IMG/VR virus record: IMGVR_UViG_3300045988_060429
Strand: one strand, 5' to 3'
Length of the DNA: 24,279 nt
Source: a virus
Taxonomy: Duplodnaviria; Heunggongvirae; Uroviricota; Caudoviricetes
The notes below the pieces were generated by a model. That model saw nothing but the letters and a program-made list of their open reading frames with translations. It was not told where the DNA came from and made no database searches. The position numbers were made by a program, and so were the translations under genes. Of this stretch, positions 1,352-23,283 are shown in pieces (position 1 is the first letter of the stretch; each line of letters opens with the position of its first letter).

Positions 1352-1388
1352 ACTATTACCACAACGGTAACTATTACCACGGTGGTTA
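1352..1388. promoter_or_regulatory. direct repeat ACTATTACCAC x2 containing the dyad TTACC-ACAAC-GGTAA
   Basis: ACTATTACCAC at 1352-1362 and 1370-1380. TTACCACAACGGTAA at 1356-1370, with an imperfect second copy TTACCACGGTGGTTA at 1374-1388, directly upstream of the terS start. Confidence 0.5.
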
Positions 1389-1984
1389 TGATGCCTGCTG
1401 AACCTAAAACCTATAAACGCAAATCAACGCAATTTAAGCCACTAACAGCAATGCAGGAGGCTTATTGCCAGTCATACATCAAAACGCCTGAAAACCAGAC
1501 TCAGGCAGCGATTAACGCAGGATTCTCCCCAAATACAGCGGCAGTTAAAGCCAGTGTCATGATGCGCGATGAACGCATTCAAAAACGGATTGCCGAGTTG
1601 ATGGAGGAGCGCAACAAACGAATGCGCGTCAGTGCTGATTACGTTCTCATGCGCCTGGTGGAGATCGACCAGATGGACGTGATCGACATCCTCAACGACG
1701 ATGGGAGCCTTAAGCCAATCCGCGAGTGGCCGAAAATCTGGCGCACTACGCTTAGTGGCTTTGATCTGTCATCGACCATCATGAACATGAACGAGGATTC
1801 GATAGAGACAATCCTCAAAAAAATTAAATGGCCTGACAAGGTGAAGAACCTCGAACTGATTGGTAAGCACGTCGACGTCAACGCATTCAAAGAACGTCTG
1901 GATGTTAATGTGAATGTGACAATTGCTGATCGCATAGCAGCAGCCAGGAAGCGACTCAAAGAACGTCAGGATGGCAATCAGTGA
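1388..1984 (+). CDS. terminase small subunit
   Basis: Segment KPLTAMQEAYCQSYIKTPENQTQAAINAGFSPNTAAV matches the helix-turn-helix region typical of TerS. Start is ATG 1388 or 1391 (GGTGG upstream). The track's 1310 start would run through the terminator and repeats. Confidence 0.75.
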   Translation: MMPAEPKTYKRKSTQFKPLTAMQEAYCQSYIKTPENQTQAAINAGFSPNTAAVKASVMMRDERIQKRIAELMEERNKRMRVSADYVLMRLVEIDQMDVIDILNDDGSLKPIREWPKIWRTTLSGFDLSSTIMNMNEDSIETILKKIKWPDKVKNLELIGKHVDVNAFKERLDVNVNVTIADRIAAARKRLKERQDGNQ

Positions 1985-3456
1985 CAGATACAGCGTTATC
2001 TCCTGAAGAGCAGTTAATCGAGGATATTGCAGGGTTCACTCACGATCCGCTTGGCTATGCCCTCTATGCGTTCCCGTGGGGGGAAGAGGGGACTGAACTG
2101 GCACATGCTACTGGTCCAAGAAGCTGGCAGAGGTGGATGCTTGACACTGTTGGCAAGCACCTCAGAAATCCAGATACACGCCATCAGCCACTGATGATTG
2201 CAGTTTCTTCAGGCCACGGAATCGGGAAAAGCGCAGGTATCTCCATGTTGCTGAACTGGGGAATGTCCACTTGCGAAGACTGCAAAGCAGTAGTCACTGC
2301 CAACACTGAAAATCAGTTGCGCACCAAAACTTGGCCAGAAGTGATTAAGTGGGCAAACCTGTCCATCACGAAAGACTGGTTCTCGACCCCGGCAACAGCG
2401 ATGTACAGCAATGATCCGGGGCACGATAAGCGCTGGCGCGCTGATGCTATACCGTGGTCTGAGCATAACACCGAGGCATTCGCCGGGCTGCACAACGAGC
2501 GTAAGCGGATTATCGTGGTATTCGACGAAGCGTCTAATATTGCTGATAAGGTTTGGGAGGTTGCCGAAGGTGCGCTTACTGACGAAGACACCGAAATCAT
2601 TTGGGTAGCGTTCGGAAACCCGACTCGTAACACCGGGCGATTCCGTGAATGTTTCCGCAAATACAAACACCGCTGGGTCACAAAGCAGATCGATAGCCGA
2701 ACCGTAGAGGGAACCAACAAAGAGCAGATCCAAAAATGGATTGAAGACCACGGTGAGGATAGCGACTTCGTTAAAATCCGTGTGCGCGGCATATTCCCTG
2801 ATGCATCTGAATTGCAGTTTATCCCTACCGGTCTTACTGACGAGGCAATGAAACGGGTGGTAACTGCTGCGCAGGTGGCACATGCTCCGGTGATAATCGG
2901 TGTTGACCCGGCATATTCAGGCGTTGATGACGCGGTGATATACCTGCGGCAGGGGCTACACAGTAAGGTGCTATGGACTGGTAACAAGACCACCGACGAT
3001 CTGATTATGGCGAAGCGTATCGCTGACTTTGAAGACCAGTATCAGGCTGACGCGGTGTTCATCGACTTCGGTTACGGAACCGGGCTGAAGTCAATCGGTG
3101 ACGGCTGGGGGCGCACATGGCAACTTGTTCCGTTCGGTGGCGCGTCTACTGACCCGCAGATGCTCAACAAGCGTGGGGAGATGTTCAACTCATGCAAGAC
3201 ATGGCTGAGGCTGGGCGGCATGCTGGATGACCAGGAAACAGCGGACGATCTGTCGGCGGCAGAGTACAAAGTTCGAGTGGACGGTAAAATCGTTATCGAA
3301 CCGAAGGAAGATATCAAGGAGCGGCTTGGGCGTTCTCCGGGGAAAGGCGATGCGTTATTGCTGACGTTTGCTTTCCCTGTGTCGAAACGCCTGCGAATTC
3401 CCGGGCAGCAGAACCAGCAAGGCAAGGCCATCACAGATTACGATCCCTATGCTTAA
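1981..3456 (+). CDS. terminase large subunit
   Basis: 491 aa, GTG start overlapping the terS stop (GTGA). Walker-A-like SSGHGIGKSAG near the N-terminus. Position after terS. Confidence 0.85.
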   Translation: MTDTALSPEEQLIEDIAGFTHDPLGYALYAFPWGEEGTELAHATGPRSWQRWMLDTVGKHLRNPDTRHQPLMIAVSSGHGIGKSAGISMLLNWGMSTCEDCKAVVTANTENQLRTKTWPEVIKWANLSITKDWFSTPATAMYSNDPGHDKRWRADAIPWSEHNTEAFAGLHNERKRIIVVFDEASNIADKVWEVAEGALTDEDTEIIWVAFGNPTRNTGRFRECFRKYKHRWVTKQIDSRTVEGTNKEQIQKWIEDHGEDSDFVKIRVRGIFPDASELQFIPTGLTDEAMKRVVTAAQVAHAPVIIGVDPAYSGVDDAVIYLRQGLHSKVLWTGNKTTDDLIMAKRIADFEDQYQADAVFIDFGYGTGLKSIGDGWGRTWQLVPFGGASTDPQMLNKRGEMFNSCKTWLRLGGMLDDQETADDLSAAEYKVRVDGKIVIEPKEDIKERLGRSPGKGDALLLTFAFPVSKRLRIPGQQNQQGKAITDYDPYA

Positions 3457-3495
3457 TCCGCTGGTGGGGATAATGTCGTTGATATCCTCTGGTGA

Positions 3496-3530
3496 GGATA
3501 AAACAAAGCCAGCTCATCGGCTGGCTGTTT
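3496..3530. terminator. hairpin terminator between convergent terL and the minus-strand gene
   Basis: Stem AGCCAGC / GCTGGCT (3507-3526). The minus-strand side has a T-rich run (TTGTTTTATCC); the plus-strand side has only GTTT. Confidence 0.55.
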
Positions 3531-3542
3531 GTGACATGTCAC
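3531..3542. repeat. perfect 12-bp palindrome GTGACATGTCAC, copy 2
   Basis: Exact string at 3531-3542, 4 bp from the terminator stem and 5 bp from the stop of the minus-strand gene. Confidence 0.9.
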
Positions 3543-3546
3543 GGTG

Positions 3547-3903
3547 TTATTGCTCGCTTAACTTCTGCTTCAGCAAGTAACCTTCGAGCATCCAGATTTT
3601 GTTTACAGCATTCTGCCGGGCAATCTTCCGACCAATTTCTGCATCAAAATTTTCCGGACTTGCACAGGCACTCTCTCCGGTGACGGTGAAGCCATTCTTC
3701 AGTACCAATACGCAGAAAGTCAGGAGGTCTGTAGATTTATGCGCTGTCCATGAATCGCCAACGCCCATATTGGCAGCACGAATGCCGTCATAAGCAGTAA
3801 AGAAATGCTCTTCAAGAATGATGCTTTCGATATATTGAGGCGTAACTCGCGGAGCGGTTTTGCCTTTCTCAACGATTTCTTTTTCGATTTGCTGGTCGTT
3901 CAT
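3547..3903 (-). CDS. conserved phage hypothetical protein (118 aa)
   Basis: ATG preceded by AAGGTGAG. Compact protein with a terminator downstream. It feels like a widespread small enterophage family but I cannot name it reliably. Confidence 0.55.
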   Translation of the reverse strand: MNDQQIEKEIVEKGKTAPRVTPQYIESIILEEHFFTAYDGIRAANMGVGDSWTAHKSTDLLTFCVLVLKNGFTVTGESACASPENFDAEIGRKIARQNAVNKIWMLEGYLLKQKLSEQ

Positions 3904-3913
3904 AATCTCACCT

Positions 3914-3938
3914 TAAAAAAATGCCCGGCGAACCGGGC
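3914..3938 (-). terminator. rho-independent terminator/attenuator just upstream of the 118-aa gene
   Basis: On the minus strand: stem GCCCGG / CCGGGC with loop TTCG, then ATTTTTTT. The SD and ATG of the 118-aa gene follow immediately. Confidence 0.5.
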
Positions 3939-4012
3939 GAACTGGAAGCAATGAGTTATGCCTTCCGTGGCTGTACTGGTTTACAGCATGAAGTCATCGC
4001 AATGGCGTCCTG

Positions 4013-4058
4013 CTGTAAAAAGGGCGGTGATAGTCCTTCAAGGGAAACCATCACCGCC
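4013..4058 (-). terminator. terminator-like hairpin downstream of the tRNA
   Basis: On the minus strand: 9-bp stem GGCGGTGAT / ATCACCGCC with an 18-nt loop, followed by CTTTTTAC. Confidence 0.4.
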
Positions 4059-4101
4059 AAGCCCCTGGAACTTCTGGCATCACGGTCCTTAGGCGTGATT
4101 C

Positions 4102-4178
4102 TGGCGTGGCATGCAGGATTCGAACCTGCGACCAACCGCTTAGAAGGCGGTTGCTCTGTCCAACTGAGCTAATGCCAC
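4102..4178 (-). tRNA. tRNA-Arg, anticodon UCU (argU-like)
   Basis: Reverse complement folds by hand into a cloverleaf: acceptor GTGGCAT / ATGCCAC, D-stem GCTC / GAGC, anticodon stem ACCGC / GCGGT with loop CTTCTAA (U33, anticodon TCT, A37), T-arm GCAGG-TTCGAAT-CCTGC, discriminator G and encoded CCA. Confidence 0.85.
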
Positions 4179-4500
4179 AACGCTGAGAGCACTTAGCCTG
4201 TTAAGGCGCCACACTTTGTCGCGGCTCCATAAATGCTCTCATCGTTGTACCCTCGTCTCTTCCGAGGAGTCACACCGAATCGCCGGGATGGTGAATCCCC
4301 GTGCGCGGAATAAAACCGCTCGACTTGCACATTCCGGCTACCTGGTTCGTTTGCCCGAGCAAGGGAGGGTGCCCCTTAAACGTATCCAGACCGCTATCGG
4401 CGCATGTGCCATACGCCGTACTGCTCAAAATAAAAGCTAACTCCACCTGTTCAATTTAACGACAAGCCAGTCAGGTTAGTAACCGGAATGAACTCTTTGG

Positions 4501-4515
4501 TTACCTGAAAGGTAA
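4501..4515. promoter_or_regulatory. dyad TTACC-TGAAA-GGTAA upstream of the portal operon
   Basis: Exact 15-mer, identical to the copy at 23269-23283. The shared block extends to TTACCTGAAAGGTAATA, and CATATGTGGTT follows in both places. Confidence 0.5.
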
Positions 4516-4605
4516 TAATTTGTGCGTTAAATGTCAACTACCTACGATAAATAAATCATATGTGGTTAAATTGGTAATAATTTAATTGCGTACGGAGTCA
4601 TTGAT

Positions 4606-4812
4606 ATGTGCATGGGTAGCTCACCATCAGTGCCTGCAACACCAGAAGTTCAGGCAGCACCACAGGAGCAGGATGCCGCCGTTGTTGATGCCCGCGACGA
4701 AGAAACTCGTCGCCGTCGCGCTGCTGCTGGTCGTAGTTCTACGCTGCTTACCGGTTCTCAGGGCGACACATCAACCGCTAATACCAGCGGTAAAACGCTG
4801 CTTGGTCAGTAA
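4606..4812 (+). CDS. hypothetical small protein (68 aa, low complexity)
   Basis: Its initiation region CGGAGTCATTGATATG is nearly identical to that of the portal gene (CGGAGTCATTGAAATG), which favours this frame over the overlapping 4586-4825 ORF. Confidence 0.4.
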   Translation: MCMGSSPSVPATPEVQAAPQEQDAAVVDARDEETRRRRAAAGRSSTLLTGSQGDTSTANTSGKTLLGQ

Positions 4813-4826
4813 CCGGAGTCATTGAA

Positions 4827-5138
4827 ATGGCGGAAACAACTAAAGAGCGATTGAACAAACAGTTCGCACAACTTGAAAGCGAGCGTCAGTCGTTCGAGCC
4901 GCACTGGCGCGAGTTGAGTGATTACATCAACCCGCGTGGTTCCCGCTTTCTGACTTCTGAGGTCAACCGTAACGATCGACGCAATACACGCATTATTGAT
5001 TCGACCGGGACTATGGCGGCGCGCACTCTCGCCAGCGGCATGATGTCAGGCATCACAAGCCCCGCGCGTCCGTGGTTTCGCCTGGCTACGCCAGATCCTG
5101 AAATGATGGATTATGGCCCTGTTAAGTTGTGGCTTTAG
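4827..5138 (+). CDS. portal/head-tail connector protein, N-terminal segment ending at an in-frame TAG
   Basis: Same frame as 5154-6506. Reading through TAG at 5136-5138 gives one protein of about 559 aa. Confidence 0.6.
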   Translation: MAETTKERLNKQFAQLESERQSFEPHWRELSDYINPRGSRFLTSEVNRNDRRNTRIIDSTGTMAARTLASGMMSGITSPARPWFRLATPDPEMMDYGPVKLWL

Positions 5139-5153
5139 GCGGGGCAGAACCGC

Positions 5154-6506
5154 ATGAACGATATGTTCAATAAGTCGAATCTCTACCAGTCTCTTCCGCA
5201 GTTATACGGAAGCCTCGGCACATACAGCACTGGTGCAATGGCGGTGCTGGAGGATGACGAGGACATCATTCGCACAATGCCATTCCCGATAGGCAGTTAC
5301 TACCTGGCTAACTCACCTCGTGGCAGTGTGGACACCTGTTTTCGCAAGTTCTCTATGACTGTTCGTCAGCTTGTTCAGGAGTTCGGGCTAAATAACGTCA
5401 GCGAATCCGTAAAAAGCATGTGGGAAAGCGGCACCTACGAGAAGTGGATTGAAGTGATGCATTCGGTTTACCCGAACATTGACCGCGATACATCGAAGCT
5501 GGATAGCAAGAACAAGCCATTCAAATCGGTTTATTACGAGGTTGGTGGCGATAACGACAAGTTGTTGCGTGAGTCCGGATTCGATGAGTTTCCAATTATG
5601 GCTCCGCGCTGGGAAGTTAACGGCGAAGATGTTTATGGATCATCATGCCCGGGTATGCTGGCGCTTGGATCTGTTAAGGCATTGCAGCTTCTTCAGAAGC
5701 GCAAGTCGCAGTTGATTGATAAAGCCACCAATCCGCCGATGGTTGCTCCGACTTCCCTCAAGAATCAGCGTGCCTCCCTTCTTCCTGGCGACATCACGTA
5801 TATCGATCAGATTACTGGTCAGGATGGTTTCAGGCCTGCTTATCTGGTTAACCCCAGTACAGCAGATTTGGTGGCAGACATTCAGGACACTCGTCAAATC
5901 ATTAACAGCGCCTACTTTGTCGATCTGTTCATGATGTTGCAGAACATCAATACCCGCTCGATGCCTGTTGAAGCGGTGATCGAAATGAAAGAAGAAAAAC
6001 TTCTGATGTTGGGGCCGGTTCTGGAGCGTCTGAACGACGAATGTCTTAATCCTCTCATTGACCGCTCTTTCTCGATGATGGTGCGTAAAAACATGCTGCC
6101 GCCACCGCCAGACGTGATGGAAGGTATGCCCCTGAAGGTCGAATACATTTCCGTCATGGCTCAGGCGCAGAAGTCTATCGGCCTGTCCAGTCTGGCGTCC
6201 ACGGTTAACTTCATTGGTCAACTTGTGCAAGCGAAACCAGAAGCTATCGACAAACTCAACGTTGATCAGGCGATCGATGCATTCGCTGATATGTCCGGAG
6301 TGTCTCCAACCGTCATTGTTCCGCAGGAACAGGTTGAGCAGGCTCGCCAGCAACGGGCACAGCAACAACAGCAGCAACAAATGATGGCGATGGGGATGGC
6401 GGCGGCACAGGCTGCCAAGACGCTAAGCGAAGCTAAAACTTCGGATCCGAGTGTTTTGTCAGCTATGGCGAATGCAGTTAGTGGTCAGGGTGGGCAATCA
6501 CAATGA
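5154..6506 (+). CDS. portal/head-tail connector protein, C-terminal segment
   Basis: The Q/A/M-rich C-terminal tail (QARQQRAQQQQQQQMMAMGMAAAQAA) strongly resembles the tail of T7 gp8 as I remember it. Lies between terminase and scaffold. Confidence 0.7.
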   Translation: MNDMFNKSNLYQSLPQLYGSLGTYSTGAMAVLEDDEDIIRTMPFPIGSYYLANSPRGSVDTCFRKFSMTVRQLVQEFGLNNVSESVKSMWESGTYEKWIEVMHSVYPNIDRDTSKLDSKNKPFKSVYYEVGGDNDKLLRESGFDEFPIMAPRWEVNGEDVYGSSCPGMLALGSVKALQLLQKRKSQLIDKATNPPMVAPTSLKNQRASLLPGDITYIDQITGQDGFRPAYLVNPSTADLVADIQDTRQIINSAYFVDLFMMLQNINTRSMPVEAVIEMKEEKLLMLGPVLERLNDECLNPLIDRSFSMMVRKNMLPPPPDVMEGMPLKVEYISVMAQAQKSIGLSSLASTVNFIGQLVQAKPEAIDKLNVDQAIDAFADMSGVSPTVIVPQEQVEQARQQRAQQQQQQQMMAMGMAAAQAAKTLSEAKTSDPSVLSAMANAVSGQGGQSQ

Positions 6507-6799
6507 CAGATTACGAAGACGATCAACTGAAAGAAGAAAACGCCCGTAAGCAACGTGACATGGCGCAGCGTGAAATTGATGACATTCGCTTTGTCATGAG
6601 CAGTGAACAGGGGCGTCGCGTTGTCTGGTCGGTGCTGGAGAAAGGCCGTGTGTTTTCCGCTATCTCACCGATGGACGCTATGGCAATGGCATTTAATGAG
6701 GGGCAACGCAATCTGGCGCTGGAACTGTTTCAGCGCGTTATGGCGCATTGCCCTGAACAGTATTTGAAGATGGCCAAAGAGGCCAGTGAACAGGAGTGA
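6503..6799 (+). CDS. hypothetical small head-module protein (98 aa)
   Basis: ATGA overlap with the portal stop, so probably translationally coupled. Confidence 0.55.
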   Translation: MTDYEDDQLKEENARKQRDMAQREIDDIRFVMSSEQGRRVVWSVLEKGRVFSAISPMDAMAMAFNEGQRNLALELFQRVMAHCPEQYLKMAKEASEQE

Positions 6800-6801
6800 T
6801 C

Positions 6802-7497
6802 ATGAATTTATTTGAGCGTTTGCTGTATCGCCGTCTTTGCAATGAGCAACCAGTCGATGGTGGAGCAGCTCCGGCTGCGTCAGAACCATCAGCGCCTGCA
6901 GGTGATAACCATGCTCCAGTTGGTGATCCATCACAACAGGAAGGTGATAAGCCACAACCTGTTGCTGATGGCGATAAACCTGCTGATGACAAAAAGCCTG
7001 AAAACGATAAGCAGGATGAAAAAAAGGACGGCAATAAACCAGAGGGTGCGCCTGAGAAGTACGAGTTTCAGGCTGCCGAAGGCGTAGAGCTGGATACAGA
7101 AGCGTTGAAGGAATTCGAGCCTGTGGCGCGAGAACTTAACCTGACCAACGAGCAAGCGCAAAAGCTGGTTGATGCTTATCCGAAGATTCTGGCAGGTGTG
7201 CAGCAGCGCCAGGCAGAAGCCTGGCAGAAAACAACCGAGCAGTGGGCTGCTGATGTAAAAGCTGACAAAGAAATCGGTGGCGACAAGTTGATTTCTAACC
7301 TTAGCGCCGCACAGCGTGCGCTTGACCAGTTCGGGACACCTGAACTCAAAGAATATCTGAACACCACCGGGCTGGGTAATCACCCTGATCTGGTCAAAAC
7401 GTTCGTGAAAATCGGAAAGGCGATGTCTGAAGATGGCATGGTCACCGGTGGTAATGAAGGCCAGCGTAGTGCGGCCGAAGTGCTCTATGGCAAATAA
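6802..7497 (+). CDS. scaffolding protein (putative)
   Basis: ATG at 6802 after AGGAG. Acidic, Pro/Ala-rich low-complexity N-terminal half and helical C-terminal half, immediately upstream of the capsid gene. Confidence 0.55.
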   Translation: MNLFERLLYRRLCNEQPVDGGAAPAASEPSAPAGDNHAPVGDPSQQEGDKPQPVADGDKPADDKKPENDKQDEKKDGNKPEGAPEKYEFQAAEGVELDTEALKEFEPVARELNLTNEQAQKLVDAYPKILAGVQQRQAEAWQKTTEQWAADVKADKEIGGDKLISNLSAAQRALDQFGTPELKEYLNTTGLGNHPDLVKTFVKIGKAMSEDGMVTGGNEGQRSAAEVLYGK

Positions 7498-7505
7498 GAG
7501 AGGAA

Positions 7506-8498
7506 ATGACAATGGCTGTTAAAGGCTTAACTGCGCTGACGCTGGCTGACTGGGGTAAGCGCGTCGATCCAAACGGGAAAGTCGATAAGATTATCGAGCT
7601 TCTCGGTCAAACTAACCCGATCCTTCAGGATATGCCTTTTGTCGAAGGGAACCTTCCTACCGGACACCGAACCACCATTCGTTCTGGTTTACCTTCAGCT
7701 ACCTGGCGTTTGCTGAACTATGGCGTACAGCCAAGCAAATCAACCACAGTGCAGGTAACCGATTCCGTGGGCATGCTGGAAACCTATGCTGAAGTCGATA
7801 AGTCACTGGCTGATCTGAACGGTAATACCGCCGAATTCCGCCTGTCTGAAGACCGCGCATTTATTGAAGCGATGAATCAGCAGATGGCGCAGACGTTGTT
7901 TTATGGTGATTCCAGCGTTAACCCTCAGCAGTTTATGGGACTGTCCTCCCGCTATTCCAGCCTGTCTGCGGGTAATGCTCAGAACATCATTGATGCTGGT
8001 GGCACGGGTACAGATAACACCTCAATCTGGTTAGTGGTGTGGGGCGAAAACACCGTGCATGGCATCTTCCCGAAAGGGCAGAAGGCTGGCATCCAGATGG
8101 AAGATAAAGGCCAGGTGACACTGGAAGATGCGAATGGCGGCAAGTACGAAGGCTACCGTACCCATTACAAATGGGACAACGGACTTGCTCTGCGTGACTG
8201 GCGTTATGTTGTTCGCATTGCAAACATCGATGTCAGCAATCTTTCAGAACCTTCCTCTGCCGCAAATATTGCGAAGTTGATGGTTAAAGCACTGCATCGC
8301 ATTCCAAATCGTGGCATGGGTCGCCCGGTGTTCTACATGAACCGCACTGTAGGCCAGGCTCTTGATCTGCAATCTCTGGAGAAAACATCTCTGGCGATCA
8401 GCGTAAAAGAGACAGAAGGCGAGTGGTGGACTTCATTCCGTGGTGTACCAATCCGTGAAACTGATGCGCTTCTGGAAACAGAAGCCCGCGTGGTGTAA
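7506..8498 (+). CDS. major capsid protein (putative)
   Basis: 330 aa, strong SD, position after the scaffold, followed by a stable stem-loop. Assigned by position and size, not by a recognised motif. Confidence 0.65.
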   Translation: MTMAVKGLTALTLADWGKRVDPNGKVDKIIELLGQTNPILQDMPFVEGNLPTGHRTTIRSGLPSATWRLLNYGVQPSKSTTVQVTDSVGMLETYAEVDKSLADLNGNTAEFRLSEDRAFIEAMNQQMAQTLFYGDSSVNPQQFMGLSSRYSSLSAGNAQNIIDAGGTGTDNTSIWLVVWGENTVHGIFPKGQKAGIQMEDKGQVTLEDANGGKYEGYRTHYKWDNGLALRDWRYVVRIANIDVSNLSEPSSAANIAKLMVKALHRIPNRGMGRPVFYMNRTVGQALDLQSLEKTSLAISVKETEGEWWTSFRGVPIRETDALLETEARVV

Positions 8499-8514
8499 CG
8501 CCTGTTATTAACCT

Positions 8515-8534
8515 GTGGGTCGTAACAGACCCAC
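8515..8534 (+). other. stem-loop after the capsid gene (mRNA-stabilising or processing hairpin)
   Basis: Stem GTGGGTC / GACCCAC with loop GTAACA. There is no U-tract, so it is not a canonical terminator. Confidence 0.4.
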
Positions 8535-16560: not shown

Positions 16561-19500
16561 TGCCGATATATGAACAGGATCCTAAAGAGTTGCTTGGCGA
16601 GGATATTCAGCAAATAGCAGCACCTGATGACAGTAATTTCTATATGGAAACACCTTCTTTGCTTTCTGCTGTGAACCCATTTACCAGTGATCAACGCGTT
16701 CAAAGGTCTAGACAAGCAGCATTTCGTATAGATAACACGCTGGGTAGCTTTATTGCCAGTGCTCCTTTCAGTCAGTTTGACAGGGTTGAAGGATATAACC
16801 CATTTGATAACGATGCAGCAGATATTAAAGGCTATGAAGATTTTGCAGATTCGTTTATCAACTCCGGTTCGCATGAAGAAACAATGGCAATTAAACATCG
16901 AATCGATAAGCAAAGAACAGATAGAGAATATCTATCTGAAATGGGTGGTGCTGGTACTATTTCAAGCTTAGCAATGGGAATGATAGACCCGGTTAATGTG
17001 GCTGCAATGTTCATCCCTGTAGGGGCGGTAGCGCGTGGAGGAAGTATTGCTGAGACGGCAGGGCGTTTTGCCCTGGCGAATGCTGCTGGTGGGGGAGTAT
17101 CAGAAGCCGCATTACAGGCCACTCAGGAAGCTCGCTCACCGATGGAGAGCGTATCGAACGTTGTTGTTGATGCTCTCGTTGGTGGGATCCTTGGTGCTGG
17201 TGCACAGCTACTTTCTGGACCTAGCGCACGCGAGGCAGTGGTTAACTCAGTAGGTAATCATTTGCGAGGTATGGATTCTCCTCAAAGCATTGGTGCAGCT
17301 CAGGTTTTCAATACCACACTCGATCAGGAACAGCTCGCTGGACTTGGACTTGTTAACAAAACGTTGAGTGTCACTCCTGCTGGCCGCTTGGCGCAATCAC
17401 CATCTCTTGTCTCCCGTCAGATTAACCAGCAGCTTGCCGAAAATAACTATTTCTTCGCCAAAAATGATGAGGGGTTGGCTACGTTTACGGCAGTCGAGAC
17501 TAAGATTAAGCAATACGACGCCATGCTTTATAAGCAGATGGAAGCCACTCGTGATGCTTACCAGCAGTACAGCAAATCTGTTAGCGCCCGCGGCGTGAAG
17601 AGGATGAACTTTATTGATTTCAATGAAGCTGTTGGCATGGCTATGCGCCGTGGTGATCAGAGTGATATTCCTGAGGTTTCACAAGCAGCCGCCAGAATCC
17701 GCCCCATTTTCGAGACCACAAAAGCCCGTATGCAGGAACTGGGGATCCTTCCTGAGGATATCGATGTCGTGACGGCGAAAAGTTATCTTCCCCGCATTTA
17801 TAAGTTCGATAAGATACTTTCCGACCGCACTGAATTCAGAGGGCGAATTGCCAACTGGATACAAGGGATTAGTGCCAAAAGTGCTGACAAAGCAGGTCAG
17901 CGAATTGAAAGGATAAATTCATTGCTAAAAACTGCAGAGGAATCGGCACCGCGCGCTGATGCTCTCGCTAGTGAAATCGCTGAAGCGGAGAAATGGTCTG
18001 GTAAAAAAATTCTACTCATGGAAGAACTGGATAAACGAAATAAGCTTATATCTCAGGAGACTGACACACAGGCGCGTCTTACAAGAATAGAAAAAGAGTT
18101 GGCCGAGACTTCATCAGAAAAACTTCAGGCAAGAATGATGAAAGAAAGCTCTGACCTTAAAACACGCCTTGATGATATAGCGCAGGCAAAGAGTGAGCTT
18201 CCTGTCTATCAGCGCCATATGGAGTTGCTGGATAATCCACGGAAATATCGTTCTGAGCTTCGCCGACTGCAAAAACGGGCAAATTCAACCACAAGGCTGA
18301 ATGCAAGCCGCGAACGAGCACTGAAGCAGATGGAGCCTCTATCCCGAGAGGAAGCAGAGGACGCTGCTGACGAGATCGTGAATAAAATAATAGGCGCACC
18401 TTCCGGGCTTGTACCAGCCGATATTATCCCAGAGAGACTCGTTGGTCGGGCTGGTTTCACTAAAAGCAGAACGCTGCTTATTCCTGATGAGCGTATAGAA
18501 GATTTTCTTGAATCAGATGTTAACTACATCATGGAAAGTTATCTCCGGCAGGTGGCACCAGAAATTGAGCTGACTGCGCAGTTTGGCCGTAAAGATATGG
18601 GGGAGCAAATCCGTCAGGTTAGTGAGGAATATACCCGGCTAATAAAAGAGGCTAAAACACCTAAACGACGTGCAGTTCTTGAGAAGCAACGGGAGGCTGA
18701 TATTAGGGATATTACGGCTATGCGTGATCGACTGCTTGGTACTTACGGCGCACCTCAAGATCCACGCGGTTTCTTTGTTCGTGCCGGGCGAGTTGCTAGG
18801 AATATTAACTTCCTCCGTTTGCTTGGTGGAATGACTGTCTCCGCTGCAACTGATCTGATGCGACCGATGATGCAGCATGGCCTGAGAAAATCTCTCGGAC
18901 CAATGGTAAGCATGCTTAAAAATATGGACTCAGTGAAAATTGCAACCAGGGATTTGCGAGAAATGGCTGTTGGGCTTGATTATGTCCTGTCTACGCGTAC
19001 AAAGGCTATAGCGGATCTTACTGACCCCTATAGCCGGAGAAGCGCCGCTGAGCGAGGTCTGAACTGGATGACGCAGAAATTCGGTAACTGGACGCTGATG
19101 AATCAGTGGAACAGCGCACTTAAATCATGGTCCGGGATGATAGTGCAGTCGAGGATACTTGACGCGGCTCGCCAAGTTTCTGCTGGTGGCACGCTCTCCA
19201 AAAGTGAAATGCGGAAGATGGCACAGGTCGGCATCAATGAAGATGTTCTGCGCCGAATCGGGGAGCAATTCGGGAAGCACGGAGAGGATATGGACGGGCT
19301 GTTAACCGGGCATAGTCATCTGTGGGATGACCGTTTCGCTAGAGAGATTTTCCAGTCTGCAGTGCTGAAAGATGTAGACTCAGTGATTGTAACGCCTGGC
19401 GTAGGTGATACACCGCTGTTTTTTAGTAAAGAAGGCTGGAAGATGATCACGCAGTTCAAAACGTTTATCTTCGCACAGCATAACAGGGTGCTGGTATCTG

Positions 19501-19949
19501 GTATCCAGCAGGGCGATGCTGCATTCTATCTTGGTGCGCTTGGCACGATTGCGCTTGGCTCAATGGTCTATATGATGAAACAGAAGTTAAGCGGTCGCGA
19601 TATCGACTACAGCTGGAATAACCTTGTGAAAGAGGGGATCGACCGGGGCGGAATGCTTGGCTGGCTCTCTGAGCCGCTGAATACCGTTGAGAACATAAGC
19701 GGCGGTAGGTTTGGTCTTGGCGCGATGTTTGGTGCGCCTCCGGTATCAAGGTTTCAGAGTCGTAATGCTATTGGTGCTTTACTTGGTCCTACCTTTGATC
19801 TTGGCGGTGATGCCGCGACGGTTGCGAATGGTGTGCTTAACGGAGAATTTGACAGCCAGCAAACCCACGCGGTCCGTAAAATGCTACCTTTTCAGAACCT
19901 GTGGGCGATATCACCGTTACTAAATAAAGTTGAAGAGCAGATGAAATAG
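16560..19949 (+). CDS. internal virion/DNA-ejection protein (gp16-like), 1129 aa
   Basis: Gly/Ala-rich hydrophobic segment (GGAGTISSLAMGMIDPVNVAAMFIPVGAVARGG...), long helical charged regions, and last position in the core-protein block. Confidence 0.6.
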   Translation: MPIYEQDPKELLGEDIQQIAAPDDSNFYMETPSLLSAVNPFTSDQRVQRSRQAAFRIDNTLGSFIASAPFSQFDRVEGYNPFDNDAADIKGYEDFADSFINSGSHEETMAIKHRIDKQRTDREYLSEMGGAGTISSLAMGMIDPVNVAAMFIPVGAVARGGSIAETAGRFALANAAGGGVSEAALQATQEARSPMESVSNVVVDALVGGILGAGAQLLSGPSAREAVVNSVGNHLRGMDSPQSIGAAQVFNTTLDQEQLAGLGLVNKTLSVTPAGRLAQSPSLVSRQINQQLAENNYFFAKNDEGLATFTAVETKIKQYDAMLYKQMEATRDAYQQYSKSVSARGVKRMNFIDFNEAVGMAMRRGDQSDIPEVSQAAARIRPIFETTKARMQELGILPEDIDVVTAKSYLPRIYKFDKILSDRTEFRGRIANWIQGISAKSADKAGQRIERINSLLKTAEESAPRADALASEIAEAEKWSGKKILLMEELDKRNKLISQETDTQARLTRIEKELAETSSEKLQARMMKESSDLKTRLDDIAQAKSELPVYQRHMELLDNPRKYRSELRRLQKRANSTTRLNASRERALKQMEPLSREEAEDAADEIVNKIIGAPSGLVPADIIPERLVGRAGFTKSRTLLIPDERIEDFLESDVNYIMESYLRQVAPEIELTAQFGRKDMGEQIRQVSEEYTRLIKEAKTPKRRAVLEKQREADIRDITAMRDRLLGTYGAPQDPRGFFVRAGRVARNINFLRLLGGMTVSAATDLMRPMMQHGLRKSLGPMVSMLKNMDSVKIATRDLREMAVGLDYVLSTRTKAIADLTDPYSRRSAAERGLNWMTQKFGNWTLMNQWNSALKSWSGMIVQSRILDAARQVSAGGTLSKSEMRKMAQVGINEDVLRRIGEQFGKHGEDMDGLLTGHSHLWDDRFAREIFQSAVLKDVDSVIVTPGVGDTPLFFSKEGWKMITQFKTFIFAQHNRVLVSGIQQGDAAFYLGALGTIALGSMVYMMKQKLSGRDIDYSWNNLVKEGIDRGGMLGWLSEPLNTVENISGGRFGLGAMFGAPPVSRFQSRNAIGALLGPTFDLGGDAATVANGVLNGEFDSQQTHAVRKMLPFQNLWAISPLLNKVEEQMK

Positions 19950-20390
19950 CTATTCACAATTAGTGATGGCGTATGTATCAAATATATTGCCATCACTAAA
20001 TACATACCTATACTCAATCTCTCCGCCAAGGTGAATAAATGCTTTCATTTGCCTGTTGGAGCAAATGCTCGATTTTGAATAATTTCGCATTACACTCTTT
20101 AATTTATTTTCTAAGGTTACATCACCATTATAAACTTTTGATAAATAGCTGTTGTTGTAATTAAGATGCGCTACAACTAAAAGTTTGTTTAGTATTGCAT
20201 TTATTGAAACAATAGACATATTATCATTCAATTTTATGGGAAGTGACTTTCCTGCTTCTGATGCGATTTTGTTTGCATGTGCACACATATCCTCATTTAT
20301 TAAATTCTTAAAACATATGTCGTTTGCAAACGAAAAAATTGGTAGGATAAACAAAACGGTAGCTGTAATAGCGTGCATCGGCTTAATCAT
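19950..20390 (-). CDS. secreted/periplasmic protein of unknown function, AT-rich (146 aa)
   Basis: N-terminal signal-peptide-like sequence MIKPMHAITATVLFILPIFSFA with a probable cleavage after SFA. The gene is visibly lower in GC than its neighbours. Confidence 0.5.
   Translation of the reverse strand: MIKPMHAITATVLFILPIFSFANDICFKNLINEDMCAHANKIASEAGKSLPIKLNDNMSIVSINAILNKLLVVAHLNYNNSYLSKVYNGDVTLENKLKSVMRNYSKSSICSNRQMKAFIHLGGEIEYRYVFSDGNIFDTYAITNCE
19961..20007. repeat. interleaved inverted repeats at the end of the late operon
   Basis: TAGTGATGGC (19961-19970) pairs with GCCATCACTA (19989-19998). GTATGTAT (19971-19978) pairs with ATACATAC (20000-20007). Confidence 0.6.
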
Positions 20391-20402
20391 TAGGTGACCT
20401 TT

Positions 20403-20852
20403 ATGTTCAAGAAGATGATCAACAGATTAATCGGTGGTAAGGAGGTTAGCAATAAAATTCAACCTCTTATCTTTAAGGATAACTTTTCAGCTTTTGAGTA
20501 TGCGTGTAAGTATCTTGACACAAGCCTTTCAGCCAATAAACCAATGCCAGCCATCATCATACCTGGTCCCAGTGGGGAACAGCCAGTTTTGCTAGATTCT
20601 GGAAGACAAAGGGCAATGCTGAAGGTGTGCTCAGCTGATGGTGGATTTTTTGTTATTGCCGATTCATCTTACAGCAAAGGACCAAAGCTGAGGATTGGTG
20701 ATCTTGTTGCTTGGTTGCCTGTGAGTTATGCCGAAGAATTAACGGATAAAATAGAAGATCCTCGCTCCGCTATGGTTGGCTTTATATTGGGAACCATTCA
20801 TCCTGAACTAACATCTACTGGCTGGAAGGGTAAAGAAAGATTTCGCAAGTAG
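20403..20852 (+). CDS. hypothetical protein (about 149 aa)
   Basis: ATG at 20403, 6 nt after AGGTG (the track's 20394 start is GTG). Divergent from the secreted-protein gene, with start codons 12 bp apart. Ends 1 bp before palindrome copy 3. Confidence 0.5.
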   Translation: MFKKMINRLIGGKEVSNKIQPLIFKDNFSAFEYACKYLDTSLSANKPMPAIIIPGPSGEQPVLLDSGRQRAMLKVCSADGGFFVIADSSYSKGPKLRIGDLVAWLPVSYAEELTDKIEDPRSAMVGFILGTIHPELTSTGWKGKERFRK

Positions 20853-20853
20853 C

Positions 20854-20865
20854 GTGACATGTCAC
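20854..20865. repeat. perfect 12-bp palindrome GTGACATGTCAC, copy 3
   Basis: Exact string at 20854-20865, abutting the terminator stem at 20867. Confidence 0.9.
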
Positions 20866-20866
20866 A

Positions 20867-20890
20867 GGCCGCTTTCGCGGCCTTGTTTTT
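20867..20890 (+). terminator. rho-independent terminator at a convergent junction
   Basis: Stem GGCCGC / GCGGCC with loop TTTC, followed by TTGTTTTT. The stop of the minus-strand peptide gene overlaps the T-tract. Confidence 0.6.
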
Positions 20891-21050
20891 AACGAATGCC
20901 ACCGCCACCCGGGCGGGAATCCGCAGAACGCCCACCGCAGCGGGAGCCGTCAGCAGCAGTGTCGCTGTCGTGCTGACAACGACCGGCAAAGGCCTGAGTT
21001 GAAGCTACCAGAGACAACAAAACGAACAGTGCAGCAAATGCTTTTTTCAT
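20889..21050 (-). CDS. small secreted peptide (53-aa precursor)
   Basis: MKKAFAALFVLLSLVASTQAFA is a classic signal peptide with an AFA-G cleavage site. The predicted mature part is a 31-aa Gly/Arg-rich peptide with two Cys. There is no lipobox. Confidence 0.45.
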   Translation of the reverse strand: MKKAFAALFVLLSLVASTQAFAGRCQHDSDTAADGSRCGGRSADSRPGGGGIR

Positions 21051-21120
21051 TGTGAAATTTCCATCTATAAGCCACCTCAATGTGGCGTCAATGAGTGTAG
21101 CACTGACTTTTGTTTCGTCC

Positions 21121-21145
21121 ACAAAAAAGCCCGCGCTGCGGGCTT
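21121..21145 (-). terminator. rho-independent terminator after the 210-aa gene
   Basis: On the minus strand: stem AAGCCCGC / GCGGGCTT with loop AGC, followed by TTTTTTGT. Confidence 0.6.
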
Positions 21146-21148
21146 CTA

Positions 21149-21781
21149 TTAATGCAGTTTATCTTTGCTTATAACCAGTAGTCTGTGGGTATGCACATCT
21201 TTATCACTGCCCCAACAGAAATCAGCCCACTGGCTATAGAAATCATCCCATGATGTCATGAAGCTAAGAGGTCTATCTTCTTCAGAGCCATCTGAAACGT
21301 ATACATTATATCCTGGGGTGTTTATAGCCCAAGAAATCATTCTTTCCCAGAATCTTCTCCCATCGATTGTTTGTTGCTCATCAGATACAACGATCGCATA
21401 TTGCTCTAGGAAGAACTGAAAAAAAATCTGAGGCAAACCATGAACAGCACGGTCATGAATAACATTAGGCGTACGCCATACCATGATCTGCGTACATGTT
21501 CTTTTGGCTTCGACGATATCTTCCCGAAAGATTAACTTAACCGCATACACCGTTTCTGGAGTATCGCTGGTAGTAATCATTCTGTAATGATCGCCATTAC
21601 AAGATTTTACAAGGCGATAACCATAAGGTGTTGTGAATCCCGGAAGAACGAAATCAACCACACCTTTCGCTAAGTAGCTTTCGGTGTGACTAGTGTTCTT
21701 CTCAGACATGTTCAGTTTTCTATCGAAATCTGCTTCTGGGATAATGTATGGCATCGCTTTTCTTGTTGTATTTGTTCTCAT
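21149..21781 (-). CDS. hypothetical protein (210 aa)
   Basis: Strong SD (GGGAGGA) 5 nt before the ATG. Own candidate promoter upstream and terminator downstream. No family recognised. Confidence 0.6.
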   Translation of the reverse strand: MRTNTTRKAMPYIIPEADFDRKLNMSEKNTSHTESYLAKGVVDFVLPGFTTPYGYRLVKSCNGDHYRMITTSDTPETVYAVKLIFREDIVEAKRTCTQIMVWRTPNVIHDRAVHGLPQIFFQFFLEQYAIVVSDEQQTIDGRRFWERMISWAINTPGYNVYVSDGSEEDRPLSFMTSWDDFYSQWADFCWGSDKDVHTHRLLVISKDKLH

Positions 21782-21840
21782 TTCGTCCTCCCATGTTTGG
21801 CTACAGGACGCGTTTTGAAGGGAAGATTAAAAATGCTTTC

Positions 21841-21855
21841 TTACCCTTGAGGTAA
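21841..21855. promoter_or_regulatory. dyad TTACC-CTTGA-GGTAA in the leader of the 210-aa gene
   Basis: Exact half-sites. It lies immediately downstream of the candidate -10 element of that gene. Confidence 0.45.
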
Positions 21856-21883
21856 TAGTACGCTATTCACCCCCAGTCTGCAA
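21855..21883 (-). promoter_or_regulatory. candidate sigma70 promoter for the 210-aa gene
   Basis: On the minus strand: TTGCAG, 17-bp spacer, TACTAT, about 75 bp before the ATG. Hexamers are only moderate matches. Confidence 0.3.
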
Positions 21884-21927
21884 TCTGTACAGAATTATTT
21901 AAAGGCACATCCCTGTGCCGCCGCCCG

Positions 21928-22620
21928 TCAGAAGAACCCTGCCTTGTCGTTGATGTATTCCGCGTGGGTCTGGATATCACGCAGGCATTTACTCACACCG
22001 ACGATGTAGCAGAACATGGTGGTCACCTCCGCCGCCGCGCCCGATACGTCGTGCCCGTCTTCCTGTAACTGGTTCAGCAGATTCATCAGCAGTGAGTTCT
22101 CCGTCAGGCCGAGAACACCAGACGGCGAATGAATCAGGCTGCGGTAGCCGGGCTTCAGTGGGGCGCTGTAGGTTTTGTTCTCTATCTTCATCGCCTGCAT
22201 TACTGCTGACGCCGTGGCGTTGGCTACCTGGTCGGCAACCATCTTTATGCGTTCTTCCTGCGGGAGCGAGTTTTTAATGTAACTTCCGGTGCGGCGGATC
22301 TGAGGAAGAACCTCACCTGTAACCCATTCAAGAAATCTGAATGCTCTCGTTCCCTCAGTCATTGCCTCTTTGCAACGCAGAATAAGGATGTAGAGACCTG
22401 ATTCTGAAACGATGGATAGTTCTTGTATTCCACCAGGGGTCTGTATTGAATACAGCCCCTTTTTGTTCCAGCCTTTTTTATCAAGTTTTCTCGCTTGTGT
22501 AACATCAATATTCAAAGCATTGCACACATCTTTGGTGACAAACCAAGGTTCTCCGTCAATCATGAACATACGGATCTGGCAGGATGACTCAAAGGAAAAG
22601 ATGGAAGGTTTGGTATTCAT
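21928..22620 (-). CDS. Bro-N domain protein (antirepressor-like), about 230 aa
   Basis: FSFESSCQIRMFMIDGEPWFVTKDVCNALNI...SESGLYILILRCKEAMTEGTRAFRFLEWVTGEVLPQIRRTGSY is a clear Bro-N signature. Start moved to the ATG at 22620 (AAGGTG upstream); the track's 22665 start has no SD. Confidence 0.75.
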   Translation of the reverse strand: MNTKPSIFSFESSCQIRMFMIDGEPWFVTKDVCNALNIDVTQARKLDKKGWNKKGLYSIQTPGGIQELSIVSESGLYILILRCKEAMTEGTRAFRFLEWVTGEVLPQIRRTGSYIKNSLPQEERIKMVADQVANATASAVMQAMKIENKTYSAPLKPGYRSLIHSPSGVLGLTENSLLMNLLNQLQEDGHDVSGAAAEVTTMFCYIVGVSKCLRDIQTHAEYINDKAGFF

Positions 22621-22887
22621 GGCGATCACCTTTGTAGTTAGGTTAATCACCACCGCTGAGACCAATCAGATGGTGGTGAACTGTGCAGAGTTGGTCTTAC
22701 CGGCTACAAAGGAACCCGGCGCACCTTTCGGTGCCCCCACACAGCCCACCATAGAATAGGTGCGCTTTACACATAAAAAAACCGCTTATGCGGCATATGT
22801 GCCTCTGTAGTAATCCGGGAGACCAATCCCGGCACTGGATTTTGCCAGTGCCCGATTACTATGGCACAAGAGGAGTGCGATGTAAAT

Positions 22888-22902
22888 TTACCGCAAAGGT
22901 AA
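22888..22902. promoter_or_regulatory. dyad TTACC-GCAAA-GGTAA in the intergenic region between the small paralog gene and the Bro-N gene
   Basis: Exact half-sites, inside a stem-loop-rich non-coding stretch. Confidence 0.45.
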
Positions 22903-22933
22903 ATATAAGCACTCCATTTGGTAATTTCAAACC

Positions 22934-23191
22934 TTATCTGGTTTGTTTTCGTAATTGTTCGGCACAATAGTCGAGATGTGTTTGCAGATCCTGCATAGAC
23001 ATCTGTGAGCTGGTGACGTAGTTAATCAGTGCAGTCAGTTCGGCAAGTGGGCCATCGACATTAAATCCATCCTTATCGAGATCCCGGAGTAATTTCATCA
23101 AGTGCGATCCCTCCACCAGTGACCTGACGCCTCCCGGCGTGTGAATCCTTTCGGTAAATCCCTCTTCCAGTGGATAGTGATACTGCTGCAT
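22934..23191 (-). CDS. small protein paralogous to the C-terminal domain of the Bro-N protein; candidate SOS-controlled antirepressor
   Basis: By-eye alignment with the Bro-N C-terminus gives roughly 35-40% identity (shared P-GV, L-E-S-LM-LL, DG--V-G, QTH--Y). Start ATG at 23191 sits 9 nt after GGAG. A LexA box lies 22-37 nt upstream. Confidence 0.6.
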   Translation of the reverse strand: MQQYHYPLEEGFTERIHTPGGVRSLVEGSHLMKLLRDLDKDGFNVDGPLAELTALINYVTSSQMSMQDLQTHLDYCAEQLRKQTR

Positions 23192-23211
23192 CTTAATCTT
23201 CTCCATGCAAT

Positions 23212-23231
23212 AACTGTATATTTATACAGTA
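23212..23231. promoter_or_regulatory. LexA (SOS) box AACTGTATATTTATACAGTA
   Basis: Core CTGT-ATATTTAT-ACAG at 23214-23229 fits the E. coli consensus CTGT-N8-ACAG with an AT-rich centre. Confidence 0.65.
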
Positions 23232-23268
23232 GCAAATAATTTGTTTGCTATCCAGCACGTTTTGCAAA

Positions 23269-23283
23269 TTACCTGAAAGGTAA
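23269..23283. promoter_or_regulatory. dyad TTACC-TGAAA-GGTAA in the divergent region between the small paralog gene and the tailspike
   Basis: Identical 17-mer to the copy at 4501-4517, followed by CATATGTGGTT at 23313-23323 (compare 4557-4567). Confidence 0.5.

Follow-up and report, generated by a model that had tools for sequence, protein, structure and literature searches.

Recurrence of the dyad in the window and in related phages

What is the role of the palindrome TTACC-N5-GGTAA, which recurs in this stretch of prophage DNA (the window; 24,279 nucleotides)? An exact search of the whole window returned five matches, at positions 1356-1370, 4501-4515, 21841-21855, 22888-22902 and 23269-23283. 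The expectation, estimated from 100 dinucleotide-preserving shuffles of the window, was 0.01 copies, and 0/100 shuffles gave five, bearing out the excess claimed in a first-pass annotation of this DNA. All five copies were located in non-coding DNA, which makes up 7.0% of the window according to our gene map (P ~1.7e-6). A similar density in coding DNA had been named beforehand as evidence against a regulatory site; it was not found. The claim that each copy heads a transcription unit also held, with refinements at 1356, 4501 and 22888 (see below). The longer block reported for two copies was recovered as well: TTACCTGAAAGGTAATA is present at 4501-4517 and 23269-23285, and CATATGTGGTT at 4557-4567 and 23313-23323. 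These data support a network of putative protein-binding operators, present far above chance. The earlier proposal of an operator or activator network thus holds for operators heading late and accessory units, whereas no evidence favored activation over repression. The possibility that the dyad is a LexA box (CTGT-N8-ACAG) was ruled out, since its sequence differs and a true LexA box is present elsewhere in the window, at 23214-23229.

The window belongs to a Uetakevirus prophage similar to epsilon15, phiV10 and SPC32H. A check suggested earlier was to count the motif in the whole prophage and in its relatives. The complete prophage L003, which is 99.2% identical to the window, contains 10 exact dyads. 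They are all intergenic (10/10) when the terS start is taken as ATG 1388/1391 and not as the TTG given by PGAP, and they border rep, the repressor gene, to its left and right (an OL/OR-like arrangement) and precede each operon. In phiV10, epsilon15, SPC32H, Tyrion and Klebsiella phage BUCT711, 8-11 exact copies each were counted, with less than one expected. In these five phages from four host genera, dyads likewise flank the repressor gene on either side, and others occupy orthologous gaps that precede terS and the portal operon or separate ant from the tailspike gene. In alignments A1-A3, the dyad arms were invariant, the spacer varied and the flanks had diverged.

In the epsilon15 GenBank record (AY150271.2), the dyad is labelled 'protein_bind, repressor, lysogeny' at seven places. 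The annotated sites at 12-27, 2931-2947, 19895-19911 and 32479-32494, among others, read TTACC-N5-GGTAA with the same arms as in the window, and the first three are the orthologues of the copies at 1356, 4501 and 23269, respectively. Thus, such sites are already known as putative operators, being annotated there as repressor-binding. A full-text search of the literature for the motif returned only unrelated papers. Both phages carry an identical 15-bp dyad at the same positions: ahead of terS and of gp3/portal, in the gap from gp19 (ant) to the tailspike gene, at OL and at the mid-early unit. The window prophage differs in two extra copies (21841 and 22888), which serve accessory units absent from epsilon15.

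Candidate binders of the dyad

We consider it very likely (probability about 0.88) that the dyad is the operator of the CI-type prophage repressor Rep, of the epsilon15 gp38/SPC32H Rep family. The window does not include rep, which is encoded just beyond it; we infer Rep as the binder in this prophage from the near-identical L003, whose repressor matched SPC32H Rep (5d50_A) with an E value of 3.5e-42. Overall identity to SPC32H Rep is only ~43%, but the helix-turn-helix stretch NLVNRW..G.K.IG is invariant, which would account for one operator sequence in four host genera. The dyad adjoins or flanks rep in every Rep-bearing genome examined. Six further loci with full-length Rep (from Superficieibacter, Erwinia, Klebsiella, two Citrobacter species and Scandinavium) contained 4-7 exact dyads each within 3 kb of rep. 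No exact dyad was detected in seven control loci, namely five with distant homologues of the N-terminal domain only, the Pseudomonas phage locus L007 and ZF40. Pseudomonas phage PseuP_224, which encodes a distant N-terminal-domain homologue, was dropped: the TTACC-N4-GGTAA-like sequence beside its cI was not above chance. What we observed directly is which sequence the sites have, where they lie, how they are conserved and that they are linked to Rep. Rep is described as a tetramer that binds palindromic sites (PMC9638917), and its tetramerization domain has a DNA-looping fold (PMC9986798). Overexpression of the identical repressor decreased holin and endolysin transcripts by ~99.97-99.99% (PMC9782041).

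The first-pass annotation preferred another binder, the Cys-rich protein encoded at 931-1269 on the plus strand, and listed the prophage repressor only as the second protein for gel shifts. The dyads would then be activator sites of a late-gene activator. The Cys-rich gene ends the early-right operon, a frequent place for late regulators, and its product belongs to phrog_536 (labelled 'transcriptional regulator') and combines a basic N-terminus with a Cys cluster. However, Pectobacterium phage ZF40 encodes a 67%-identical homologue and has no exact dyad. Its one-mismatch dyads stay at chance level (2 versus 0.72 expected) and are both in coding DNA, and its cI differs, being lambda-like. Furthermore, the dyads cluster around rep and not around the Cys-rich gene, are present at rep loci taken with only 3 kb of flank, and precede early operons transcribed before the Cys-rich gene. 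We found no link between this protein and the dyad, which instead follows Rep, and regard the activator reading as highly improbable. A connection between ATGTGGTT and the Cys-rich protein was also rejected, the matches in ZF40 being all in coding DNA and showing no link.

The sites could also serve mainly a Cro-like protein encoded divergently from rep, or a host factor. A 76-aa phrog_35 'transcriptional repressor' is encoded beside rep, and in lambdoid switches Cro uses the CI operators too, making dual use plausible. Such shared use, however, would add to the Rep reading and not displace it. The site set follows full-length Rep across genera, the invariant recognition region sits in Rep, and no exact dyad was detected in 10 kb of host DNA flanking L003. 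A main user other than Rep is therefore very unlikely.

Finally, the dyad could act as an RNA hairpin in leaders, either as a boxB-like antitermination signal, as suggested earlier, or as a translational element. Every copy can form a small hairpin of slight predicted stability (-3.6 to -5.9 kcal/mol; lowest z-score -4.2), and some dyads (terS site 2 and the pre-DUF1064 site) overlap a Shine-Dalgarno sequence. Against this, the arms were invariant in 62 exact copies from seven sequences, with no compensatory substitution, and in conserved one-mismatch copies (TCACC..GGTAA, TTACC..GGTAT, GGTTA) the stem is disrupted by a change that has no counterpart in the other arm. The loop varies freely in sequence, and several dyads are located at the predicted transcription start, 5' of it, or in the space separating divergent promoters. 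Stems this weak could not cause termination or occlusion alone, and an Rfam scan gave no family match at any dyad. The likeness to boxB of the lambda N-utilization system is one of geometry alone (5-bp stem, 5-nt loop); the dyads lack a conserved loop, covariation, an N-like protein and a nutA-like context. We thus give an RNA element very little credence and return to a DNA operator read by Rep.

Sites at the individual units

The terS-proximal site 1, TTACCACAACGGTAA (1356-1370), is an exact match whose arms are unchanged in five aligned phages (alignment A3). Its position before terS agrees with the first-pass annotation and is refined by a partner: a second operator with one mismatch, TTACCACGGTGGTTA, at 1374-1388. 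The Shine-Dalgarno sequence of terS, GGTGG, falls in the right half of this partner, and the partner abuts the start codon (ATG at 1388 or 1391). The operator pair, with its 18-bp spacing, is kept in phiV10, epsilon15 and Tyrion. By consensus, an extended -10 promoter of the terS operon, TGgTACTAT, is predicted at 1348-1356 on the plus strand. The promoter ends in the T with which the dyad begins, and TGnTACTAT is kept in 5/5 aligned phages. Just 5' of this promoter and the operators, an intrinsic terminator (1319-1344, plus strand) ends the early-right operon; its stem is kept in Tyrion.

The exact copy TTACCTGAAAGGTAA at 4501-4515 separates a leftward tRNA-Arg/gp66-like unit from the rightward portal operon. 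In alignment A1, its arms are invariant in six phages, and the upstream flank is diverged. Again the position before the portal operon stands, now with an overlapping leftward promoter, TTGACA-17-TACCTT, predicted on the minus strand at 4509-4537 (score 12.2). The -10 of this promoter lies within the dyad, and its -35 (TGTCAA on the plus strand) is invariant in six phages. It would drive tRNA-Arg (4178-4102) and a gp49/66-family gene (3903-3547, assigned by Pfam). To the right, an invariant block, (C)ATATGTGGTTAAATTGGTAATAATTTAA, is present at 4557-4584 on the plus strand. Within it, at 4563-4577, is a half-operator pseudo-dyad, TGGTT-N5-GGTAA, whose distance from the dyad is exactly 62 bp. 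The block is identical in 6/6 phages from ATATG on, the interval between dyad and block is without indels, and the block is probably the portal-operon promoter. Sigma-70 scoring yielded only weak, ambiguous candidates for the rightward portal and tailspike promoters.

A similar block was found in the interval between ant and the tailspike gene. The ant gene (22934-23206, minus strand) encodes a homologue of the SPC32H antirepressor (5d50_E, E 1.7e-47), and a LexA box, CTGTATATTTATACAG, covers its promoter at 23214-23229 and is kept in six phages (alignment A2). The exact dyad at 23269-23283, which has the same sequence as the 4501 copy and is kept in six phages, lies between ant and the tailspike gene (ATG 23388). 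The conserved block CATATGTGGTTTTTCAGGTAATAGAAT (23313-23339, plus strand) includes a -10-like TAGAAT as well as a pseudo-dyad (23319-23333) at a distance of 50 bp from the dyad, and is probably the tailspike promoter. An inverted repeat around the tailspike -10, CATATGTGGTT...AACCAGATATG, was dropped because it is not kept beyond E. coli phages.

The two remaining copies head accessory units. The exact dyad TTACCCTTGAGGTAA at 21841-21855 marks the start of a 210-aa accessory gene (21781-21149, minus strand). A promoter, TTGCAG-17-TACTAT, is predicted at 21855-21883 on the minus strand (score 8.6); its -10 ends on the T that opens the dyad. L003 has the same promoter and dyad at 34143 with other cargo, a hypothetical gene and a YafO-family toxin.

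The exact dyad TTACCGCAAAGGTAA at 22888-22902, with orthologous sites at phiV10 20497 and L003 35190, had been placed between the paralog and Bro-N genes. This position is correct; more precisely, the dyad heads a unit of the isrK small RNA, the C4 antisense RNA and the Bro-N gene. It is abutted by a strong predicted promoter, TTGAAA-17-TATATT (22902-22930, minus strand, score 15.1), with a start at ~22895. A second predicted promoter, TTTACA-17-tgCATAGT (22886-22858, minus strand, score 10.6), has its start at ~22851, which is the 5' end of isrK. The Bro-N leader contains the Hfq-binding RNA isrK (22851-22775, 74.7 bits) and the C4 antisense RNA (22756-22669, 78.6 bits), both on the minus strand and both Rfam gathering-score matches. 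The protein itself (21928-22620, minus strand) combines a Pfam Bro-N domain with an Ant-like C-terminal domain (5d50_E Ant, E 2.6e-13) and is probably a second antirepressor. Its Ant-like C-terminus accounts for the "paralog" relationship noted in the first-pass annotation.

A model of repression and its known counterparts

In the mechanism we propose, paired helix-turn-helix N-terminal domains of Rep would read the TTACC and GGTAA half-sites and leave the 5-bp spacer free. Operators lie in the immunity region and at the heads of the terS, portal, tailspike, lysis, int, mid-early and accessory units. With an operator at the head of every unit, one repressor would directly silence the whole prophage. 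At most units, the T that ends the predicted -10 is also where the dyad begins, so that the dyad would cover the transcription start. Several units carry another site 62 bp off, with the predicted promoter between the two, and such pairs fit a tetrameric, loop-forming Rep that bridges them. All promoter positions are consensus predictions; these positions, Rep binding and looping are what we infer from the sites. Induction would not need Rep cleavage: SOS would take LexA off the box at the ant promoter, and Ant, once made, would strip Rep from all operators together.

At the portal and tailspike units, the likely promoter block follows the perfect dyad at a distance of 62 or 50 bp, at which simple occlusion does not explain repression. 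Tentatively, and with more doubt than confidence, we suggest that the late-operon copies are not simple occluding operators. Each could be an anchor dyad with a second site at fixed phase, so that one non-cleavable Rep tetramer clamps the promoter. This 'promoter sandwich' might be reused genome-wide and replace a late activator/antiterminator cascade. The spacing from anchor to second site is 62 bp at the OL, mid-early and portal units and 48-50 bp at OR and the tailspike unit. The second site would be on the transcription start or the Shine-Dalgarno sequence, or be a half-site within the invariant promoter block CATATnnGGTT-N5-GGTAATA. In addition, ATGTGGTT recurs 47-59 nt downstream of dyads and may be a piece of the sandwich architecture or a site for a second factor.

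A close counterpart is the Rep-Ant-LexA lytic switch of SPC32H, in which Ant inactivates Rep. It is represented by PDB entries 5D50 and 5D4Z and was reportedly described in 2013 (Kim and Ryu) and 2016 (Kim et al.). Rep and Ant homologues, the LexA box on the ant promoter and the dyads, which are the same in the SPC32H genome, are common to both phages. The window phage goes beyond SPC32H in its Bro-N/Ant-like fusion, which stands behind isrK and C4 RNAs and has its own operator. The C1 operators of phage P1 are dispersed over the genome and include Op51 at the c4-icd-ant (immI) operon. P1 thus resembles the window phage in having a single repressor with many scattered operators, and an operator-controlled promoter followed by a C4 RNA and an antirepressor gene. 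It differs in that its operators are asymmetric 17-mers, C1 is unrelated to Rep and its late promoters use the activator Lpa. The 'stoperators' of mycobacteriophage L5 gp71 are asymmetric and orientation-dependent and block elongation. L5 is similar in that repressor sites in short intergenic gaps genome-wide silence the whole prophage, but an L5-type stoperator was rejected because the dyad described here is perfectly symmetric (5+5) and is placed at or next to promoters. Lambda CI/Cro OL/OR has in common a dyad operator, clusters that bracket the repressor gene and a pairing of sites that suggests cooperativity. In lambda, however, late operons lack CI operators and depend on Q antitermination. 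Lambda CI also undergoes cleavage with RecA, in contrast to Rep, which an antirepressor inactivates.

These findings contain no new regulatory principle, and their value lies mainly in correct annotation. The natural operator pairs are available for testing the published Rep tetramer/looping model. In a common type of E. coli prophage integrated at guaA, an operator of the immunity repressor would be placed on every operon, including packaging, head, tailspike and accessory cargo. Since the cargo (the 210-aa gene here and the YafO toxin module in the sister prophage) stands behind operator promoters, we predict that it stays silent in the lysogen and is turned on upon induction.

The dyad in the prophage and its relatives

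Megablast assigned the window to the epsilon15/phiV10 group of temperate podophages (genus Uetakevirus). A guaA-located prophage in E. coli genomes matched 93% of the window at 99.2% identity, and one complete copy, L003, was used for comparison. The early-right operon ends in the left part of the window with genes for DUF551, ASCH, and a Cys-rich protein; these are followed by terS/terL, the head and tail genes, an accessory region, and the start of the tailspike gene at the window end. The repressor gene lies outside the window, ~5 kb upstream.

All five exact copies of TTACC-N5-GGTAA named in the first-pass annotation were found (1356-1370, 4501-4515, 21841-21855, 22888-22902, and 23269-23283). 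The expected number was 0.01, as estimated from 100 shuffles of the window, of which 0/100 reached five copies. When up to two mismatches were allowed, 20 matches were detected versus 7.3 expected; a one-mismatch dyad at 1374-1388 adjoins the first exact site (1356). According to our own gene map, 7.0% of the window is non-coding, and this share holds 5/5 copies (P ~1.7e-6). The longer block described for two copies was also present: the 4501 and 23269 sites have in common TTACCTGAAAGGTAATA and, downstream of it, CATATGTGGTT.

The motif was then counted over the whole prophage and in related phages. L003 contains 10 exact dyads, which are located on both flanks of the repressor gene, ahead of a mid-early gene, terS, and the portal operon, in the accessory region, and between the antirepressor gene ant and the tail fibre gene. 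Conserved one-mismatch dyads are also present, one of them ahead of int. No exact dyad was found in the host DNA around L003 (~10 kb flanking). In phiV10, epsilon15, SPC32H, Enterobacter phage Tyrion, and Klebsiella phage BUCT711, 8-11 exact dyads each (versus <1 expected) occupy the same relative positions as in L003. Together, the seven sequences contain 62 exact dyads, with the window and L003 counted separately though they are near-duplicates. The copies are intergenic throughout, except for some within doubtful annotations, namely a terS N-terminal extension in phiV10 and L003, which begins upstream of a terminator, and a 70-aa ORF in the OL region (an operator cluster beside rep) of Tyrion; coding DNA does not carry the motif at a similar density.

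The GenBank record of epsilon15 lists seven "protein_bind, repressor, lysogeny" features (12-27, 2931-2947, 19895-19911, 32479-32494, 32554-32570, 32616-32632, and 35906-35922), each of which corresponds to this dyad. Multi-phage alignments (A3, A1, and A2, respectively) showed that 12-27, 2931-2947, and 19895-19911 are orthologous to the window sites at 1356, 4501, and 23269. The feature is already known as the repressor operator set of epsilon15-like phages; the prophage is new and carries two extra accessory copies.

Candidate binders of the dyad

The first-pass annotation viewed the dyads as an operator or activator network at the heads of transcription units, with the Cys-rich protein (931-1269) as one candidate binder. 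The operator network is retained, with a different binder: we infer, at a probability of roughly 0.88, that the dyads are operators of Rep, the repressor family of epsilon15 gp38 and SPC32H Rep, whose gene is not part of the window. The L003 repressor is homologous to SPC32H Rep (PDB 5D50 chain A, E 3.5e-42), and the 90-aa gene at 22934-23206 (-) corresponds to the antirepressor Ant of the same crystal complex (5D50, E 1.7e-47). The ant promoter is overlain by a LexA box (23214-23229), which is conserved in six phages. Kim & Ryu in 2013 and Kim et al. in 2016 are said to have found that Rep stays uncleaved in SOS and is removed via LexA-controlled Ant.

Published work describes Rep as tetrameric and as binding to palindromes (PMC9638917), with a DNA-looping fold in the tetramerisation domain (PMC9986798). 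When the identical repressor of phage ZX5 was overexpressed, the holin and endolysin transcripts were decreased by ~99.97-99.99% (PMC9782041). Rep proteins from four host genera share an overall identity of only ~43%, and their N-terminal helix-turn-helix domain contains the invariant stretch NLVNRW..G.K.IG...AR.IE, which fits with one half-site common to all of them. A search with the Rep alignment against one genome per species yielded six full-length homologues (in Superficieibacter, Candidatus Erwinia dacicola, Klebsiella, two Citrobacter species, and Scandinavium), and each of these loci harbors 4-7 exact dyads within 3 kb, tight on both sides of rep. Five loci whose match to Rep is distant and confined to the N-terminal domain had no exact dyad. 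The Cys-rich protein belongs to phrog_536, and Pectobacterium phage ZF40 (lambda-like cI) encodes a homologue of it at 67% identity, yet ZF40 has no exact dyad and only two one-mismatch matches (0.72 expected), both in coding DNA. As judged by this genome comparison, the motif tracks Rep and not the Cys-rich protein.

The dyad had also been proposed to act as a boxB-like RNA hairpin. This reading was rejected: the predicted hairpins are weak (-3.6 to -5.9 kcal/mol), the arms show no covariation because they never vary, conserved one-mismatch dyads leave an uncompensated mispair in the stem, loop sequences are unconstrained, and an Rfam search gave no family match at any dyad.

A one-mismatch dyad, TTACC-N5-GGTAT, is located just upstream of int, near attP, and is conserved in all the phages (L003 1934-1948; epsilon15 26882, phiV10 26870, SPC32H 26960, Tyrion 28568, BUCT711 12620). 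This conservation suggests that int may also be under Rep control.

Promoter geometry and operator pairs

Promoter positions are consensus-scoring predictions, from which the geometry was inferred. At five units, the last T of the predicted -10 hexamer is the first position of the dyad, and therefore the dyad covers the predicted start site. The predicted promoters are those of PL (TTGACA-17-AATTAT) and the mid-early unit (TTGATT-17-TTTAAT) in L003, terS (extended -10 TGgTACTAT, conserved in five phages), the 210-aa gene (TTGCAG-17-TACTAT), and the isrK/C4/Bro-N unit (TTGAAA-17-TATATT). The 4501 dyad overlaps the -10 of a predicted leftward promoter, TTGACA-17-TACCTT, the -35 of which is invariant in six phages. 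This promoter is predicted to drive a tRNA-Arg gene and a gp49/66-family gene. The tRNA-Arg gene (anticodon TCT; 4102-4178, -) lies beside the latter, between the terminase and portal operons and on the opposite strand.

Operators also occur in pairs spaced 61-63 bp start-to-start (about six helical turns), with the promoter between the two sites and the proximal site overlapping the Shine-Dalgarno sequence of the downstream gene. All the phages have such pairs at both OL and the mid-early unit, as do most of the extra Rep loci (L003 7188/7250 and 10249/10311; equivalents in L001, L002, L004-L006, and L009-L014). At the portal unit, a half-site pseudo-dyad, TGGTT-N5-GGTAA, is located exactly 62 bp from the dyad, within a block identical in six phages (alignment A1); at the tailspike unit, the corresponding distance is 50 bp. 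We speculate that at both units an anchor operator is paired with a weak, promoter-embedded site.

Copies of the element ATGTGGTT / CATATnnGGTT lie on the + strand at a distance of 47-59 nt downstream from dyads (window 4557-4584 and 23313-23339; L003 10298 and 35238; epsilon15 24754), and at the portal unit, six phages infecting four host genera have the block ATATGTGGTTAAATTGGTAATAATTTAA in identical form. The element is probably a late-promoter core.

In RefSeq/PGAP and in the phiV10 record, terS starts with a TTG at window position 1310, which precedes both terS operators as well as an intrinsic terminator (1319-1336). The epsilon15 and Tyrion annotations use the conserved start, ATG 1388 or 1391. 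The portal gene (4827-6506) contains an in-frame TAG at codon 104 (5136-5138), where L003 has GAG, and differs from L003 by one missense change nearby. Barring sequencing error or suppression of this TAG, the prophage may be unable to form particles.

Accessory units behind the dyads

After the last tail gene, two adjacent back-to-back ORFs of unknown function (phrog_8772 and phrog_9944; 19950-20852) lie in a stretch of low GC content (41%) with no dyad ahead; it looks like a moron-type insertion.

The 21841 dyad heads a cargo slot. In the window, the slot is occupied by a 210-aa phrog_1349 protein of unknown function (21149-21781, -). In L003, this promoter-dyad combination is followed by a YafO toxin module (33275-34100) consisting of a small hypothetical gene and a YafO-family toxin; L003 also has an additional YafO-family module. 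The cargo behind a shared, predicted Rep-controlled promoter varies between sister prophages.

In the interval from the 22888 dyad to the Bro-N gene, Rfam detected isrK Hfq-binding RNA (74.7 bits) and C4 antisense RNA (78.6 bits), arranged in tandem in the Bro-N gene leader (22669-22851, -). The C-terminal domain of the Bro-N protein (21928-22620, -) shares homology with Ant, the small antirepressor (5d50_E, E 2.6e-13). Because of the isrK and C4 RNAs and this Ant-like C terminus, the unit resembles P1 immI. On the same grounds it resembles the Gifsy-1 isrK-anrP locus (PMC4825925); it is found here in a podophage under a Rep operator. In phage ZX5, overexpression of the Bro-N protein "ORF4" favored the lytic cycle (PMC9782041). 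The Bro-N protein is probably a second antirepressor, under Rep and sRNA control, beside the LexA-controlled ant.
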